Below are positions 39,186 through 46,549 of a stretch of 56,349 bases of DNA, piece by piece (position 1 is the stretch's first letter; each line of letters starts with the position of its first letter). This DNA is from a virus. Under the pieces are notes generated by a model. That model did no database searches. It was not told where the DNA came from and worked only from the letters and a program-made list of their open reading frames with translations. The stretch lies in UHGV virus genome UHGV-0011358; one strand, given 5' to 3'. The translations under genes were made by a program, and so were the position numbers.

Positions 39186-39386
39186 TTACTTGTTCCCCAT
39201 TCGCGCGTCGTGTTCCTCTTGCGCTCGCTTGTTCTCCTGTGATTTGAAGTAATAATTAACGGCAAATGTGCCTACGGTTGATAAGATACCAACGAAAACA
39301 GCGACGTCATTGATGGTTATCGCGCCGAAAAAAGCAGTTACGGCCCCAGTCACATACGCACACGCCTCCCGTATTCTGTCGAACAT
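39186..39386 (-). CDS. class II holin (pinholin-like)
   Basis: 66 aa, two TM segments, charged C-terminus; immediately upstream of SAR endolysin. Confidence 0.7.
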   Translation of the reverse strand: MFDRIREACAYVTGAVTAFFGAITINDVAVFVGILSTVGTFAVNYYFKSQENKRAQEEHDARMGNK

Positions 39387-39400
39387 AGATTTTCCTCCAA

Positions 39401-39428
39401 CAAAGCAAAAACCCGGCGCGGGGCCGGG
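39401..39428 (-). terminator. rho-independent terminator just upstream of holin (tR'-like position)
   Basis: CCCGGC-loop-GCCGGG hairpin with T-run on minus strand, 15 nt before the holin RBS. Confidence 0.5.
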
Positions 39429-39468
39429 TAGTTACAGTTTCGCATTGTTGTAAATATGCTAATCTTTT

Positions 39469-40167
39469 TTATTTTTCATTGCAATATTGCGCAGTTTCCG
39501 TGTCAAATATGCGACACCGAAAAAATGAACATCCCAACTCCTCTTCAATACGGCGCTGACGTATAGCGTCAGATGCCTCCTGGCTTTTATGATGCCCTTC
39601 GTCAATTTCTACGGCGATATTATTTACCGGATCATAACCATCTATCCGGTATTCCAATACCTTATATTGTCTAATTAGCTTAACACCAACCAATTGTTCA
39701 TACATGCATAAAGCGCCGTGCTCAATTCTGGCAAACGCCTCATTGCCGTAAGGTCTATTATTCTCAATACCACACAACCACGCATCATAAGCAGCGGCCA
39801 CATCTTTTGTTGCGTAAGTCTTACTGCCTATAACTTTTGTGCTGTCTTTGTATATCCACCCACGACGTTGCAACCAAAGATAAGGACGACGCGACTCGGG
39901 CGCATCGTGATTCCTCCATATATCTGTAAGGCAGACAAGTGACGATACTTTAGTCAATGACCTGGCCAACCAGCCGCCATACTCATTTGCCACATATTGC
40001 GGAGCAAAATACCCGCGAGCAGCGCTCCCTTTTTTCCCTATCCGTCGCAACTCACACTTATCTTGATATTCCTCACCGCTTTTGCTATTCAACCAGCAAG
40101 CTGGGGAATAACCTTTCTCGCTTCCGAATTTATGCCATATTGATGACAATAAAACCATTTCTTCCAT
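39469..40167 (-). CDS. hypothetical protein, possible restriction-endonuclease-like C-terminal domain
   Basis: 232 aa; C-terminal NIAVEIDEGHH...RQRRIEEELGCSFFRC resembles Vsr/DUF559-type endonuclease folds. Confidence 0.45.
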   Translation of the reverse strand: MEEMVLLSSIWHKFGSEKGYSPACWLNSKSGEEYQDKCELRRIGKKGSAARGYFAPQYVANEYGGWLARSLTKVSSLVCLTDIWRNHDAPESRRPYLWLQRRGWIYKDSTKVIGSKTYATKDVAAAYDAWLCGIENNRPYGNEAFARIEHGALCMYEQLVGVKLIRQYKVLEYRIDGYDPVNNIAVEIDEGHHKSQEASDAIRQRRIEEELGCSFFRCRIFDTETAQYCNEK

Positions 40168-40395
40168 ATTGCCCCCAATAAATAAAACCCGCCGAAGCGG
40201 GTCCTGTTTGCGCTCTACAAATACGGCTTTATGCAGTTCTGTATATCAGGCCGTTATCAAGCAATGTTTGCATGTGTTCGCGATCCATGCCGCTTGATTC
40301 CCAATATTTATTGCCCGCGCTTTGTATCAACACCCTATCACCTTTAACCAAGTAAGCGAAGGTAAATAACTTGTGCAAATAGATACCGTCTTCAA

Positions 40396-40632
40396 TCATT
40401 TCTCGCGCTCCTTAATAGCTCGCTTGATCTGCACTACCGTAGCATCAAAGAAAGCGAGAAAAACCAATACAGGCCAGAAAGGGATCTCAAATCCGCAACG
40501 GTCAGCCTCGCTAACCTTAATAAAACATGACATCAGGATAGCGCCAGCGATATAAAGCAAAACAATAACAGCAATAAGGCACTCAATCATCATCATCGTC
40601 CTCGTCGTCATGTTCGGCCATGAAATCATCAA
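40396..40632 (-). CDS. small membrane protein (cargo block)
   Basis: 78 aa with two hydrophobic segments. Confidence 0.4.
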   Translation of the reverse strand: MMISWPNMTTRTMMMIECLIAVIVLLYIAGAILMSCFIKVSEADRCGFEIPFWPVLVFLAFFDATVVQIKRAIKEREK

Positions 40633-40843
40633 CGTCGCGGTAAGTTATCGGCGGGATGTATTCGAAATCATCAGAATCAAGATCAAGCGTCCTGCTGTCG
40701 CCGTCGTCGTCCATCGTATTCATCCCTAACTCACCGAAAGGGCCATACCCAATATGGCCCAGGTATTCGCATCCAGTAGTAAAGCCAGGGTATTCGCCTT
40801 TGCACCTGATCTTGTATAGCTTACTTGATGCGCTCAATTTCAA
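40583..40843 (-). CDS. hypothetical acidic protein (cargo block)
   Basis: 86 aa; poly-Asp/Glu C-terminus. Confidence 0.4.
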   Translation of the reverse strand: MKLSASSKLYKIRCKGEYPGFTTGCEYLGHIGYGPFGELGMNTMDDDGDSRTLDLDSDDFEYIPPITYRDVDDFMAEHDDEDDDDD

Positions 40844-41144
40844 TTCCCCCTTCTACCCCTTCAGTCATTTTGTATTCCGCAAACAGTTCAGCGCCAAGTA
40901 ATTCGACATCAGCATCACCAATACCAGGGAACGCCAGATAAGCAAAAATAAGGCTTTTAATTCTATTCAGGTCTTCAAGATGGTCTGCATTAAAAGGCGG
41001 TTCAGCTACATGGAAGCACTTGACGTTAGCTTCGTCGTCAGTTGCCACGCGGAAACATGCGCCAGATTGTCCGGCGAATTGTCCCAATCTTTCTTCGTTC
41101 GGAAAAGTACCACGAAAAACTTTAACACTGACAAATTTAGACAT
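40821..41144 (-). CDS. hypothetical protein (cargo block)
   Basis: 107 aa ORF. Confidence 0.4.
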   Translation of the reverse strand: MSKFVSVKVFRGTFPNEERLGQFAGQSGACFRVATDDEANVKCFHVAEPPFNADHLEDLNRIKSLIFAYLAFPGIGDADVELLGAELFAEYKMTEGVEGGIEIERIK

Positions 41145-41167
41145 TTGTTATTCTCCTTCGTAATAAA

Positions 41168-41557
41168 TTAAAATTCTGCACCAGGTAAGCTACGCGCTTT
41201 ATTTACCGCATCGTGTTTTAACGATAAACCAGCGTGATAATTCATAATCCCCATATTACCAACCGGTATTTCATTATTTTCTGCCTTTATTCTTAACAAC
41301 TGGTTTTTAGTGAAGATCCTGTCTCCATCAGTGATATATAACCAGTCGCCGCGCTTACCAACAACAACATGAGATCTGCCTAAGCTGTCTTTAAATTCAT
41401 AATTGCAGAAAACATCACCTTTAGGAACTTCAACAAAACAGCACGCAATGAACTTATTGCTTTTCATGATTTTGCCCATCCGCCTTTCTGTGCTCATATA
41501 TAACAAAACGGCGCTGCCTGAACAATGCCATTTCGTATACATTGTGATACTAGTCAC
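41168..41557 (-). CDS. hypothetical protein (cargo block)
   Basis: 129 aa ORF; start uncertain. Confidence 0.4.
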   Translation of the reverse strand: MTSITMYTKWHCSGSAVLLYMSTERRMGKIMKSNKFIACCFVEVPKGDVFCNYEFKDSLGRSHVVVGKRGDWLYITDGDRIFTKNQLLRIKAENNEIPVGNMGIMNYHAGLSLKHDAVNKARSLPGAEF

Positions 41558-41578
41558 ATTTTGCGCAATTAACTTTTA

Positions 41579-41845
41579 TCAGAAAACACCTTTATAATCG
41601 ACCGTGTATTTTGCCACTAATTTCCAGTCACAATAGTTTTCCATGTCGCGCGGTTGCCAGCCTTTCATACCAACAGCACTTCGCGCAGCGTGGCGGCGAC
41701 AGTTGTCGTTAAGATCTACAACACACCACGACTGAAGCACAAACATGTATCCAGCCTCGTTAACCAGGATCGCCATCTGCTTTCCTGTTGCCTTATCTTT
41801 TGCCCGGAAATAACTTACCCTGATTTTCATTTTTAATAACCTCAA
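41579..41845 (-). CDS. hypothetical protein (cargo block)
   Basis: 88 aa ORF. Confidence 0.4.
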   Translation of the reverse strand: MRLLKMKIRVSYFRAKDKATGKQMAILVNEAGYMFVLQSWCVVDLNDNCRRHAARSAVGMKGWQPRDMENYCDWKLVAKYTVDYKGVF

Positions 41846-42041
41846 TCAACATTTCTTCTTCCAGGTTGGCAGGACGTTTACGGAATATGCCAGCAAAAAC
41901 CAAATCGTCCAGGTGCCCCCTGGTGCAAAACAGCTTTTCTTCCCTAACCCCATCAGAATCGCACCTGTAAGTCTTATCGTTGATCAGAAAGTAAAAGCTA
42001 CAGAATGAAGGGGCCAGGTAAACATCTTCGTAAACGTCCAT
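41793..42041 (-). CDS. hypothetical protein (cargo block)
   Basis: 82 aa ORF. Confidence 0.35.
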   Translation of the reverse strand: MDVYEDVYLAPSFCSFYFLINDKTYRCDSDGVREEKLFCTRGHLDDLVFAGIFRKRPANLEEEMLIEVIKNENQGKLFPGKR

Positions 42042-42045
42042 GATG

Positions 42046-42288
42046 TTAACCCTCGACTACTTCCAGCCCGCGCCCCTTATCGCCAACGAAGTCGCCCAGG
42101 CTGAACATATACGACCATGCCGGATTTATGTAATGGTCATCAGCGCCAGCGGCGATTAAATCAGCACCGTTAATCATGCAAGTGACATCATCGCTATGAA
42201 CGACATTAACGACCTTACCAACAACCTGTTTCAATGACGGATAACCGTGATCGTGCAAGAATTTAACTTTCATTCCCCTGTCTCCCAA
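42046..42288 (-). CDS. hypothetical protein (cargo block)
   Basis: 80 aa ORF. Confidence 0.4.
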   Translation of the reverse strand: MGDRGMKVKFLHDHGYPSLKQVVGKVVNVVHSDDVTCMINGADLIAAGADDHYINPAWSYMFSLGDFVGDKGRGLEVVEG

Positions 42289-42548
42289 CGGCCCATACTG
42301 ATTAAAAAGTCCCGGATAGCGTGGCGCTCGTCGCGCGTTGGTTTGCGCTTACGGTAAATCCTGAAATCGAACCATGCTTTTTCCTGCTCAAAATCCAGGT
42401 CGTAAGCAAGCGCCTCAATGTAACCGCATTCGTGATACTGGTACGCCACGCCAGCACGAACAAAAAAGCGGGTTTTATCCCGCTTGTGCTCATAGATACG
42501 CATATTCACCCCGTTAAGCAGTTGTGTAGCTGTCCACCAGCTTTTCAT
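42270..42548 (-). CDS. hypothetical protein (cargo block)
   Basis: 92 aa ORF. Confidence 0.4.
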   Translation of the reverse strand: MKSWWTATQLLNGVNMRIYEHKRDKTRFFVRAGVAYQYHECGYIEALAYDLDFEQEKAWFDFRIYRKRKPTRDERHAIRDFLISMGRWETGE

Positions 42549-42744
42549 CTTTCATTCTGGCAAGCTGTGCGATGTTCATCGTGTAGCCGCCTTCAGAGAA
42601 AAACCACTCCGCCGTTCTGCGACGAAAAGAAATATCATCATGGTTGCGCGTCCATGTAGCGATCACCACGCGCTTTCCGTCAGTGGCAAACATAGATAAT
42701 TCATTATCAACTACGTCGATAGCCTGCCAGATTTTTAGCTCCAT
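42514..42744 (-). CDS. hypothetical protein (cargo block)
   Basis: 76 aa ORF. Confidence 0.4.
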   Translation of the reverse strand: MELKIWQAIDVVDNELSMFATDGKRVVIATWTRNHDDISFRRRTAEWFFSEGGYTMNIAQLARMKDEKLVDSYTTA

Positions 42745-43100
42745 GATTTATCTCCGTAGATCTTGAATAGTTCACACGCTTCCTGATTTTCCAATATATT
42801 CATATGCAGGTCACGCAGGCGGCGCATTGTGCGGAATCGTGGCCTGAACTCCTGGCTGCGTTTAATGTATTTGCCGCCAATTGAATAAATATGCCCGTAT
42901 GCGTACCATCTGTTACCTACCCATATATCATATTCTTTTCCTTCGTAATTAAATTTTATCGTTAGCTCGCCTACTTCAACTATTAATCCTTTATCAATGA
43001 TGTCATTTAACATTTCATCCCATTCTTTCAGGAATGGTTGTTGATACATGCCAAAAACTGTATTTGCAGCATGGCAAAGATAATCAATGATTATTTGCAT
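42735..43100 (-). CDS. hypothetical protein (cargo block)
   Basis: 121 aa ORF. Confidence 0.4.
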   Translation of the reverse strand: MQIIIDYLCHAANTVFGMYQQPFLKEWDEMLNDIIDKGLIVEVGELTIKFNYEGKEYDIWVGNRWYAYGHIYSIGGKYIKRSQEFRPRFRTMRRLRDLHMNILENQEACELFKIYGDKSWS

Positions 43101-43104
43101 GTTA

Positions 43105-43317
43105 TCACCACATCATATAATAAACGTTCTCATCAGCTAACATGTCAGCTACATCCTGCGTCATGTGCTTGGCATCAAGGAAATAGTCCTCGCTATGCCA
43201 TTCTCTTACAAGCATTCGCGCCCATTTACGGCGCTGGCGCTTATTGCGACGCAAATCATCAAAAGCCTTTAATGCTTTGTCATATGCCCTTACAAGGCGC
43301 TTACGGTTACTTTTCAT
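43105..43317 (-). CDS. hypothetical basic protein (cargo block)
   Basis: 70 aa; Arg/Lys-rich. Confidence 0.4.
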   Translation of the reverse strand: MKSNRKRLVRAYDKALKAFDDLRRNKRQRRKWARMLVREWHSEDYFLDAKHMTQDVADMLADENVYYMMW

Positions 43318-43576
43318 TGCTATGATCCTGTAAACAGTCGTTATAGCCTTCGATGTATCCGGTTAATCCAGTGTTGCTAACTGACCAATCAGCCGAACGG
43401 CGCTTGATGGCCTTGTCCATAGTCATAGCATCAACCGGATCTGTTAAGTCTATATATTTCCGCAATTCAGTAACTATTACCGCCCTTAATTGTTGTGCAT
43501 TTGAGTACGTCCTTGCTTTGTCAGTTATTCCGTTTATAAGCTCCCTAAATTCATGATCCTTTAATTTAGGCTTCAT
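43307..43576 (-). CDS. hypothetical protein (cargo block)
   Basis: About 89 aa from ATG 43576. Confidence 0.4.
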   Translation of the reverse strand: MKPKLKDHEFRELINGITDKARTYSNAQQLRAVIVTELRKYIDLTDPVDAMTMDKAIKRRSADWSVSNTGLTGYIEGYNDCLQDHSNEK

Positions 43577-43769
43577 TGTCGTTTCTCCGTCCGTAAATAT
43601 GAACAGGCTCAATTGGCACGGCTGGTAATTCACCTTCGTTTAATGCGCTTGCCATGCCCAATATTAAACGCGCTTCAGCACCGGTAACTTTCTTGCACCA
43701 TGCACCGCCCGTTTTATCTTCGAACAAGATAACAGCAAACTGATCGTTTATTTCCAGCTTATCCATCAT
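43566..43769 (-). CDS. hypothetical protein (cargo block)
   Basis: 67 aa ORF directly downstream of Q. Confidence 0.4.
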   Translation of the reverse strand: MMDKLEINDQFAVILFEDKTGGAWCKKVTGAEARLILGMASALNEGELPAVPIEPVHIYGRRNDNEA

Positions 43770-44488
43770 TCACCCCGTGTCACTCGTTTGATTTCGTTGT
43801 CAGCCCGCGCCTCTTCTTTGAACAATTCGGCAATGGCGTCTTCATAGAAAGCGCGGTACTTCTTCCACCATGTTGATCGGCTTACCGGAAAAACAAGCTG
43901 ATTAACCGCCTGCCGGACAAGATCTACAGGGAAACGCGAGTACCCGCGCCCGCCGCAGTGCTGGCACGTTTTGAATACTGGCATTTCCGCCGCTTCGCTG
44001 GCTGTTTTATCCGGTATCTCGCCACGACCCTTGCATTGTTTACAATGATTGCGAACTGTCCCATGCCCCTTGCATTTTTTGCAAAGGTGTTTTTCTCCGT
44101 ATTCGTCAAACGTAAATTTATATCCGCCGCACTCCATACAAGTTTTTTCCGTCGCGGCGCTTTGGCAATAATCCCGAAACGCGAAAACGGCAACAAGAAT
44201 AATGAGATCATTGCGTTTGGCCTCGTCCAGTTCCATAACGTATTCATAATCTTTTGCCATAGCCCTTAAACGCTCTGTAAGCAAAACTACGGCCTTATGT
44301 TTTTCGGCTTGTGATAGTTCCATCTTCCCTAAAAAAGCGCTATAACCAAGCTCTACGCGCGATTGCGCCATACCTGCGGCAGTTAGTGCATCCGTAGTAT
44401 TAAACGCATCCGGGGACGTGCCCCGACTTTCATCTGATAAACGCGGTGATTTTGGGAAGTGGAATTTGAGAATTGATTCCAAATTCAT
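43766..44488 (-). CDS. Q: late-gene antiterminator Q
   Basis: N-terminus MNLESILKFHFPKSP and Cys-rich zinc-finger region match lambda Q by eye. Confidence 0.85.
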   Translation of the reverse strand: MNLESILKFHFPKSPRLSDESRGTSPDAFNTTDALTAAGMAQSRVELGYSAFLGKMELSQAEKHKAVVLLTERLRAMAKDYEYVMELDEAKRNDLIILVAVFAFRDYCQSAATEKTCMECGGYKFTFDEYGEKHLCKKCKGHGTVRNHCKQCKGRGEIPDKTASEAAEMPVFKTCQHCGGRGYSRFPVDLVRQAVNQLVFPVSRSTWWKKYRAFYEDAIAELFKEEARADNEIKRVTRGE

Positions 44489-46348: not shown

Positions 46349-46549
46349 TAATGCTCTCTCCTTTTCAGGTGATTTCTACGCATTTCAGCGCTGCCGGATT
46401 TTTAAAGAGCATTTTGTTTGCTTGAAGTATACAAAATGGATACACCAGAACAAGGCGAAAAGCGCCATTATGTGATCCATATCACACAATGACGCCATTT
46501 TGTAAACTTCAGTCCGGTAAAACGCTGGCGTGGTTAGCTAAAAGCTGTT

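Follow-up and report, generated by a model that had tools for sequence, protein, structure and literature searches.

Gene block between Q and the holin gene of an mEpimmI-group coliphage: a probable early-operon accessory segment that ends at a proposed holin-proximal late promoter

Between the gene for the antiterminator Q and the lysis genes of the virus genome UHGV-0011358 (56,349 nucleotides, the whole of which is referred to here as the window) lies a 4.3 kb block of fifteen small open reading frames (ORFs) on the minus strand, numbered W1 to W15 from Q toward the holin gene. Judged by sequence comparison, this block is a standard, syntenic post-Q accessory segment of the mEpimmI group of temperate coliphages, with a cassette combination of its own in the window. 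We propose that it forms the distal, post-Q part of the early right operon, in which the N-like protein Gp17, acting at nutR2, would let the polymerase resist terminators and transcribe W1–W14 together with Q, and that W1–W14 would play dispensable parts in lytic growth, as accessory or host-takeover proteins, rather than act as toxins or defense genes expressed in the lysogen. The late promoter, its pause element, and its terminator would be compressed into ~85 base pairs (bp) upstream of the holin gene, leaving the block upstream of the late promoter PR′, and W15 would be a rare cassette inserted in the PR′ spacer that behaves as a free-standing homing endonuclease gene. As a whole, we hold this combination to be the best explanation of the data, with a probability of about 0.62.

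Results

A conserved segment of the mEpimmI group

On the evidence of its sequence, the window is a temperate coliphage of the mEpimmI group and a relative of mEp021 and mEp554. Among 50,697 phage records, a megablast search with the block returned only seven matches, all to mEp021-group Escherichia coli phages (mEp554, mEp010, mEp044, MagusPhagus, mEp013, mEp021, and mEp515), which covered 45 to 76% of the block at 87 to 92% nucleotide identity; of 5426 complete E. coli genomes, 35 had prophages with the same segment. The mEpimmI group (mEp021, mEp010, mEp013, mEp044, mEp515, and mEp554) was described in 2025 by Negrete-Mendez et al. (PMC11893012) as consisting of Nus-dependent, non-lambdoid temperate siphoviruses that have three nut sites, a CI-like repressor, and N-like (Gp17) and Q-like proteins. 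The window and its relatives have the gene order NinG, RusA, Q, block, holin, lysozyme, and Rz in common, and every annotated relative carries 8 to 25 genes labeled "hypothetical protein" from Q to the holin gene, with a predicted terminator at the end. The repressor region of the window is 90 to 97% identical to the cI of the mEp phages.

To the isolates we added 42 further loci, taken from IMG/VR by the terminator and ribosome-binding site (RBS) sequence, and we compared 20 complete Q-to-terminator blocks. These measured 1975 to 6773 bp, that of mEp021 being only 2 kb long, and held 8 to 28 ORFs of 39 families, which kept the same relative order throughout. Fourteen of the fifteen ORF families of the window recurred with their order kept, with W4–W6, W8, W9, W11, W12, and W14 making up a core set and W1–W3, W7, W10, and W13 a flexible one; the turnover of cassettes occurred mostly from W9 to W11, and the W14 family was present in one to three tandem copies per block (35 copies in total). 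Because W1–W14 have homologues in related phages with ratios of nonsynonymous to synonymous substitution rates (dN/dS, pooled Nei-Gojobori) of 0.11 to 0.38, the substitution pattern shows them to be genuine protein-coding genes under purifying selection.

A preliminary description of this DNA had reported a dense, co-oriented string of about 14 small ORFs from Q to the lysis cassette, none of them recognized, and had viewed it as novel cargo. The string itself was confirmed, as co-oriented minus-strand ORFs of 56 to 232 amino acids (aa) tile 43769–39469 from Q to a terminator just before the holin gene, but their count is 15. The statement that none is recognized held for W1–W14, for which Pfam, NCBIfam, and PADLOC gave no match, and failed for W15, which carries a DUF559 domain. 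The novelty of the block did not survive the comparison above, which placed it as a conserved, syntenic post-Q segment of a published group. Homology to ordinary conserved nin-type genes of a known phage group had been named as the finding that would speak against novelty: this was largely the outcome, as the block is conserved in a known group, but without homology to lambda Nin proteins: W1–W14 belong to none of the Nin families NinB–NinH and NinX/Y/Z in Pfam and NCBIfam.

A probable late module against the holin gene

From its motif pattern and conservation, we consider it quite probable that PR′, qut, and tR′ lie at 39484–39401 on the minus strand, in ~85 bp directly upstream of the holin gene. 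The proposed PR′ with its sigma-dependent pause element (39444..39484, minus strand), which was assigned by motif pattern and by comparison with six phages, would consist of a −35 hexamer TTGCAA (39484–39479), a −10 hexamer TAGCAT (39461–39456), and a −10–like hexamer AACAAT (39449–39444), so that the late module of the window reads TTGCAA-17-TAGCAT-N6-AACAAT, then the terminator, and then the holin gene. The tR′-equivalent terminator (39401..39429, minus strand) has its stem at 39429–39411 and a U-run to 39401 (−18.2 kcal/mol, z −3.2). Its homologue is annotated as TERM_5 in mEp021, and t5 is among the experimentally demonstrated terminators according to the Fig. 7 legend of PMC11893012; we assume that this t5 is the TERM_5 of the mEp021 GenBank record. 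The T-run of the terminator ends at 39401 and is followed by the RBS of the holin gene (GGAGG, from 39398) and by its ATG (39386); the late module stands 13 nucleotides (nt) from that RBS.

The holin-proximal site was strongly conserved. The sequence GATTAAAATAyTwCCTAACAATGCGAAAyTGTAAyT, followed by the terminator and the holin RBS, was kept in all 46 related sequences. In these, conservation extends from the A-rich spacer through the start codon of the holin gene, even though different ORFs stand immediately before this stretch. In the relatives, the late module reads TTGT(A/G)G-17-TAAAAT-7-AACAAT. When the 20 blocks were searched from the Q gene to the terminator, a TTG −35, a −10, and a pause-like hexamer were found together at the holin-proximal position only, in 14 blocks including the window; the remaining six, which have the class B upstream sequence, kept the −10 and the pause-like hexamer without the TTG −35.

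The proposed module resembles those of other phages with a Q of the lambda family. Six such comparators have a common layout of a −10, 5 to 7 nt, and AAC(G/A)NT just after Q: lambda itself (TTGACT-17-TAAATT-N6-AACGAT, in which AACGAT is the sigma-dependent pause element at +1), P22 (TAAATT-N6-AACGAT, with the late terminator from +31 in the annotated record), SE1 (TTGCAA-17-TATCAT-N6-AACAGT; the closest Q outside the group, at 38%), phi80 (TAGATT-N7-AACGCT; its record annotates pR′, the terminator, and the Q site), Klebsiella phi5.1 (TTAATT-N6-AACGAT), and Erwinia phage 49 (TATAGT-N5-AACACT). The mEp group has TAAAAT-N7-AACAAT. In most comparators, all but the Erwinia phage having been checked, a terminator lies within ~30 to 60 nt of the predicted start, and in lambda at 194 nt. 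In the window, the terminator hairpin near +21 would give a leader of ~45 nt, a shorter one than those of P22 (+31) and lambda (194 nt). Like PR′-qut-tR′ of lambda, as seen in the loading complexes of PDB entries 7UBM and 7UBN, the module combines a homologous Q with a −10, a −10–like AACNAT after 6 to 7 nt, and an intrinsic terminator, but it differs in its distance from Q, which is ~40 nt in lambda and 2 to 6.8 kb in the mEpimmI phages. Because the PR′/tR′ module appears to abut the holin gene, the block would be upstream of PR′ and part of the early operon, and would not depend on Q. The late promoter was not located, and this segment was not specifically discussed, in the searched text of PMC11893012.

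The Q gene (43766..44488, minus strand) belongs to the lambda-Q family (Pfam Antiterm PF03589, 1e-29; DnaJ_CXXCXGXG), and its product matched the PDB entries 7UBM (Q-lambda, 6.1e-38) and 4MO1 (7e-25). Its residues 115–147 form a 33-residue CxxCxGxG zinc-finger insert that was unaligned to 7UBM and by which the protein differs from Q-lambda. The insert adds a CxxCxGxG pair, giving four such motifs in a DnaJ-like two-zinc arrangement.

Probable transcription through the block

A boxA-like sequence, GCTCTTTAA, is found at 46410–46402, upstream of a NinF-like ORF and at the place given for nutR2 by PMC11893012, which sets nutR2 downstream of a methyltransferase gene. Within the block, promoter-like sites were not enriched (13 found versus 16.6 expected), no scan-level promoter on the coding strand preceded any of the ORFs, and no convincing internal promoter for expression in a lysogen was found. 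Three terminator-like hairpins do occur inside it, one in W6, one in the module between W9 and W10, and one before W15. The first of these, an intrinsic terminator-like hairpin with a T-run (42466..42485, minus strand; −18.4 kcal/mol, z −5.3), has its homologous site in T9 of mEp554. We infer that such intrinsic terminators are tolerated inside the block because the polymerase is antiterminated.

A nuclease cassette in the proposed late promoter

W15 (39469..40167, minus strand; 232 aa) is a rare inserted cassette that encodes a predicted DUF559/Vsr-like nuclease. In its product, a middle region connects an N-terminal domain of ~71 aa (PHROG 23715) to a C-terminal DUF559/Vsr-like nuclease domain, which matched DUF559 (PF04480) with 24 bits against a cutoff of 20.6 (3.8e-5); further weak Pfam matches were to MTES_1575 and KilA-N. 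The PADLOC match covered only the catalytic core of mREase_II (residues 168–225, 2e-8). Residues D176, D179, E187, D189, E190, and H193 were invariant across 20 homologues. The C-terminal domain was modeled by AF2 with a pLDDT above 90, and Foldseek gave weak but coherent matches to Vsr-fold proteins (AbaSI, PvuRts1I, I-Bth0305I, and Vsr). Elsewhere, the C-terminal ~70 residues occur fused to the phage DNA-binding domains Rha or Bro-N, as in mEp044_12.

The distribution of W15 is patchy and its site is precise. At full length it was found in only one other cluster, P0001, at 90% identity, and it was absent from the seven isolate phages, from all 5426 complete E. coli genomes, and, as a full-length gene, from the 42 IMG/VR loci. 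W15 always stands directly before the holin gene, in mEpimmI-type phages with differing block contents, and the two alleles, which are 90% identical, are inserted at exactly the same site in backbones of two classes, A and B. The junctions are AAACAG (or AAATAG) on one side and ATTAAAAT on the other, in the PR′ spacer and 2 nt upstream of the −10, and the empty site reads AAACAGATTAAAATATTACCTAACAATGCG. Both alleles carry their own upstream hairpin with a T-run (in the window at 40184..40205, minus strand; −14.6 kcal/mol; 16 nt before the W15 ATG), and both alter the right flank alike, from TAAAAT-ATTwCCT to TA(G/C)CAT-ATTTAC. For PR′, the 3′-terminal codons of W15 provide an A-rich spacer and a TTG at the correct 17-nt spacing. 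Because of the identical precise site in two backbones, the altered right flank, and the patchy presence, W15 is most likely a free-standing homing endonuclease gene with co-conversion of its flank.

Near the W15 site, other relatives carry a short version of 79 to 91 aa that has the N-terminal domain only (PHROG 23715) and stands between the W14 family and PR′. It was found in locus L038 (5063–5340) and at the same site in L020, L022, L025, L026, L037, L041, L043, and L046. In L038, the gene is flanked by an 18-bp direct repeat (TAAAGCCGTATTTGTGGG; also given as TAAAGCCGTATTTGTGG), which suggests that this cassette was gained by duplication or recombination at a conserved linker after the stop codon.

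The individual ORFs W1 to W14

The lengths of W1 to W15 are 67, 108 (89), 70, 121, 76, 92 (77), 80 (75), 82, 88 (83), 129 (103), 107, 86, 78, 56, and 232 aa, where brackets give the lengths from likely starts. Neighbors mostly overlap or stand at most 10 nt apart, with only three real gaps (99, 23, and 61 nt), and the Q stop and the W1 start overlap in ATGA. The coordinates below are all on the minus strand, with the number out of 20 blocks in which each family was found.

At the Q end lie the acidic W1 (43566..43769; phrog_35000; 12 blocks; dN/dS 0.16), W2 (43307..43576, ~89 aa from its likely ATG, with the longest ORF running from 43633; phrog_29262 at aa 20–108; 17 blocks; dN/dS 0.26), and the basic W3 (43105..43317; pI 9.9; phrog_8758; 17 blocks). 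They are followed by the near-core W4 (42735..43100; phrog_16975; 19 blocks; dN/dS 0.11), the core ORFs W5 (42514..42744; phrog_38280; 20 blocks; dN/dS 0.17) and W6 (42270..42503; phrog_30442 at aa 16–92 of the long ORF; 20 blocks; dN/dS 0.11), and W7 (42046..42273; phrog_5009; 15 blocks; dN/dS 0.11). Two further core ORFs, W8 (41793..42041; 20 blocks; counterpart mEp021_41) and the basic W9 (41579..41830; phrog_38609; 20 blocks; dN/dS 0.12), precede the flexible, basic W10 (41168..41479), which is ~103 aa long from a start that was inferred from the Shine-Dalgarno sequence GAAAGGCGG and which has no PHROG match (15 blocks; dN/dS 0.28). Beyond it are the acidic, near-core W11 (40821..41144; phrog_23107; 19 blocks; dN/dS 0.29), the very acidic W12 with its poly-D tail (40583..40843; pI 4.1; phrog_25234; 18 blocks), W13, a predicted membrane protein of 64 to 78 aa with two hydrophobic segments (40396..40632; phrog_10061; 17 blocks; dN/dS 0.38), and the core ORF W14 (40229..40399; phrog_15318; 20 blocks).

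The preliminary description had proposed profile and structure searches for each ORF. In the profile searches, 13 of the 15 ORFs matched PHROG families, all of them without known function, and W15 alone matched Pfam and PADLOC entries (DUF559 and the mREase_II core). The block contained no toxin-like or tRNA genes, and no RNA gene was found in the whole window by Rfam at the gathering threshold or by a tRNA scan. Structure searches covered W8 and W15, of which W15 gave the weak Vsr-fold matches described above and W8 gave no fold match. In size, position, and family, W8 is the counterpart of mEp021_41, which the mEp021 record calls a "virion structural protein" and which was found in virions by mass spectrometry, with a RegA-like RNA-binding role suggested for it (PMC11893012). 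Our model of W8 (AF2 pLDDT 58, with no meaningful Foldseek match) neither backs nor disproves such a role; the named homologues of W8 are all from E. coli.

Three families extend beyond the group. W7 has homologues of 40 to 43% identity in 119 further phage records, mostly of rV5-like virulent E. coli phages of ~137 kb, W3 has homologues of ~49% identity in Sasha-like Salmonella and E. coli siphoviruses, and W4 has homologues of 38 to 50% identity in Salmonella and Enterobacter, where the Salmonella homologue that we examined lies in the early operon of a P2-like prophage with Cox on one side and gpA on the other. This spread of W3, W4, and W7 outside the group points, for three families only, to accessory roles in the lytic cycle rather than in lysogenic conversion. 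On the abortive-infection and anti-restriction phenotypes that the preliminary description had proposed to test, the data speak neither for nor against: W1–W14 gave no PADLOC match, no internal promoter convincing for a lysogen was seen, and W3 and W7 have counterparts in virulent phages.

Two groupings of these families were considered and dropped. By eye, a motif F-x-G-x-x-Y ... DDxG suggested one diverged paralogue superfamily, but an all-versus-all hhalign comparison backed only the pair of families f13 and f23 (96.5%), with f20 at 57%, and all three are absent from the window; a cluster of W4, W12, and W14 was a single-linkage artefact from chimeric ORFs. In the blocks of other phages, we noted a 239-aa PAPS-reductase–like protein (family f35 in locus L033; PF01507, 4e-8), proteins named by PGAP as ASCH-domain or "RNA-binding" in E. 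coli prophages H16–H23, and a weak paralogue of W3 (family f14, named "RNA-binding protein" by PGAP).

The gap between W9 and W10

The 99-nt gap between W9 and W10 holds an intergenic module (41497..41558, minus strand) that is made up of a perfect TGTGA-N6-TCACA palindrome (41558–41543), a hairpin with a U-run (41529–41502), and the promoter-like hexamers TTGTTC-17-TATATA. The module is conserved as the left edge of the variable zone, with the right half-site lost in about half of the relatives, and it could act as a terminator, as a weak promoter that depends on CRP or on a regulator, or as a linker for recombination. We rejected a CRP-dependent internal promoter as the leading explanation and kept it as a minor rival, as its geometry fits but its −10 is poor, its −35 lies in the hairpin, and its half-site is not conserved.

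Perfect copies of TGTGA-N6-TCACA, the CRP consensus, occur three times in the window (41543–41558, 46471–46486, and 49840–49855), compared to ~0.05 expected by our estimate. All three are intergenic in the co-oriented early region and have a common geometry of 17 nt, TTGTnn, 16 to 17 nt, and a −10–like hexamer, and the one at 46471–46486 stands directly upstream of the nutR2 boxA. Within one mismatch, the window held nine matches versus 1.66 expected. Palindromes, CRP, and operator sequences were not found in the searched text of the mEpimmI paper (PMC11893012).

Neighboring genes and the repressor

Upstream of Q in the window are the NinF-like, NinG (46248–45553, minus strand), and RusA (45087–44674, minus strand) genes, the latter two confirmed by Pfam, with a 60-aa ORF placed by ORF order between RusA and Q. 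A 175-aa HNH endonuclease gene (45556–45029, minus strand; PHROG 99, 8e-61) separates NinG from RusA, which abut in mEp554, mEp021, MagusPhagus, and the prophage of E. coli strain 127; from its position, it looks like a second free-standing homing endonuclease insertion of the window phage. One relative, L051, has an HNH_3 gene after Rz instead. On the other side of the block, a class II holin gene (39186..39386, minus strand; Pfam PF16080, 6e-15) is the first late gene, followed by a lysozyme gene, which was confirmed by Pfam, and Rz/Rz1.

The cI-like repressor gene of the window is split. A 1-nt deletion at ~55272 (GCGGGCGC to GCGGCGC), relative to the 215-aa cI of mEp010, leaves two minus-strand ORFs, an 85-aa helix-turn-helix (HTH) fragment (55432–55175) and a 148-aa S24-domain ORF (55232–54786). 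The frameshift either marks the phage as a virulent or clear-plaque mutant or stems from misassembly of a G-run, and it matters to any lysogen study of the window phage.

Discussion

We weighed the early-operon explanation against rivals in which PR′ lies elsewhere or in which the block serves the prophage. If PR′ lay at the Q stop, as it does in lambda, the block would be the 5′ part of a Q-antiterminated late operon whose terminators are read through, comparable to the cargo of Stx phages, where the Stx genes are downstream of PR′ and tR′ and Q-dependent. A second lambda-like motif, GTGACA-16-TAAGCT-N7-AACGAT, does stand directly after the Q stop, its first letters within the last Q codons, in 12 of the 20 blocks including the window, and PR′ follows Q by ~20 to 60 nt in all six comparator phages. 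In the window, this motif (43740–43790, minus strand) spans the Q stop and the W1 start, and its pause hexamer is identical to that of lambda. We nonetheless rejected it as the late promoter, as it lies in the coding sequence of the Q C terminus and the W1 N terminus and is missing in 8 of the 20 blocks, whereas an essential promoter should be universal and the holin-proximal module was found in all 46 sequences; the motif also lacks the A-rich spacer that the holin-proximal site has in common with SE1. In five of the eight blocks without the motif, among them that of mEp021, the type phage, which is viable, another gene comes first after Q. The motif could be what is left of PR′ at an ancestral position, or it could have arisen by chance, and a late-operon cargo is, in our assessment, quite unlikely. 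The analogy to the Stx gene slot that the preliminary description had drawn would not hold if our PR′ assignment is right, with the PR′/tR′ module at the holin end of the block and the block wholly upstream of it.

The segment from W10 to W14 or W15 could instead be a moron or lysogenic-conversion island, expressed in the prophage from a CRP-cAMP–activated TTGTTC-17-TATATA and conferring a fitness or defense trait on the host. The perfect CRP-consensus palindrome in the sole large intergenic gap, centered near −61.5, would suit this, as would the two further palindromes of the same geometry in the window, the excess of near matches, the conservation of the module at the edge of the variable zone, and the strong terminator before the holin gene, which such a unit would need. 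We consider such an island unlikely, however, as roughly half of the relatives have lost the right half-site, the −10 candidates lack A2 or T6, the −35 is inside the terminator-like hairpin, and there were no defense, toxin, or Pfam matches; moreover, since its cI gene is frameshifted, the window phage may form no lysogens. Instead of a selfish homing element, W15 might be a nuclease that serves the prophage in defense or exclusion, such as a methyl-directed restriction enzyme, as the PADLOC match and the weak fold likeness to the 5hmC-specific AbaSI and PvuRts1I could suggest. The PADLOC match, however, spans only the ~60-residue catalytic core and no partner domain such as those enzymes have; in place of an evident promoter, a hairpin with a T-run stands 16 nt ahead of the ATG; insertion at one precise site recurs in two backbones with a co-varying right flank; and the nuclease domain is elsewhere fused to Rha or Bro-N; all this makes a defense role very unlikely.

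Several points weigh against the explanation that we favor, in which an early-operon accessory block is combined with a holin-proximal PR′ and a homing cassette. N-type antitermination through the block was deduced from the nut-site map of the published paper. The proposed −35 is not conserved but differs across two upstream sequence classes, a simple promoter scan misses the proposed PR′ (8 of 12 positions matched), and the lambda-like motif at the Q stop offers a competing position. The fold matches of W15 all had E values above 0.001 and its N-terminal 70 residues were poorly modeled, and its cleavage activity and mobility are putative. A lytic accessory role can be backed by homologues outside the group for only 3 of the 14 families (W3, W4, and W7), and W8, whose counterpart was reported in virions, does not fit with host takeover.

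Compared to known systems, the block corresponds most directly to the accessory genes of the "regulation cluster" in the mEpimmI phages, with which it has in common the order Q, small ORFs, terminator, and holin as well as 14 of its 15 ORF families; it differs in its own combination of cassettes and in W15, which was found in none of the seven sequenced isolates. With the nin region of lambda and P22 it would share small, dense, partly dispensable genes in a mosaic arrangement with interspersed intrinsic terminators, in a PR operon antiterminated by N, but nin precedes Q whereas this block follows it, and its 15 ORFs have no Nin family match. The interval from Q to PR′, which the block would fill in the window, holds no genes in lambda, P22, phi80, SE1, or the Klebsiella and Erwinia phages. 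Stx-phage cargo is alike in placing extra genes from Q to the holin gene of a Q-regulated temperate phage and different in that the PR′/tR′ module of the window appears to abut the holin gene, with a block upstream of it that is free of toxin-like and tRNA genes. W15 resembles the Vsr-like homing endonuclease I-Bth0305I (EDxHD, PDB 3R3P) and the seg and mob genes of T-even phages in its nuclease core, where acidic and His residues are conserved and which follows an N-terminal region, and also in its intergenic location between conserved genes, its patchy presence at the same site in divergent genomes, and its altered flanks. It differs from I-Bth0305I in that its sequence similarity is to DUF559 and not to EDxHD, with a weak fold match (probability 0.85, E value 0.14).

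Overall, the seemingly unique cargo island is an accessory segment of a kind that is standard in a group of gut coliphages described in 2025, and our result is mainly one of clarification. Some novelty may lie in the displaced Q/qut arrangement and in the nuclease cassette embedded in a promoter. Relative to the searched text of PMC11893012, the new elements are a probable lambda-type late module against the holin gene, which predicts the timing and control of the block, and a rare homing-endonuclease–like cassette inside the late promoter. W1–W14 constitute a pool of uncharacterized early phage genes under purifying selection, of which W3, W4, and W7 are common to other phage groups including virulent ones, and their use as targets in screens for anti-defense or host-takeover functions would be reasonable, if unexceptional. 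A farther-reaching possibility, which we regard as doubtful when all its parts are taken jointly, is that W15 represents an undescribed homing endonuclease family that targets the late promoter of its host phage and survives there as its 3′ end rebuilds the −35 and the spacer, and that some of the 14 orphan early proteins are new host-takeover or anti-defense factors. In the older lambda genetics literature, lambda Q was reported to be cis-preferring. If the displaced arrangement is true, the 2 to 7 kb from Q to qut in the mEpimmI phages would provide a natural test of that preference.

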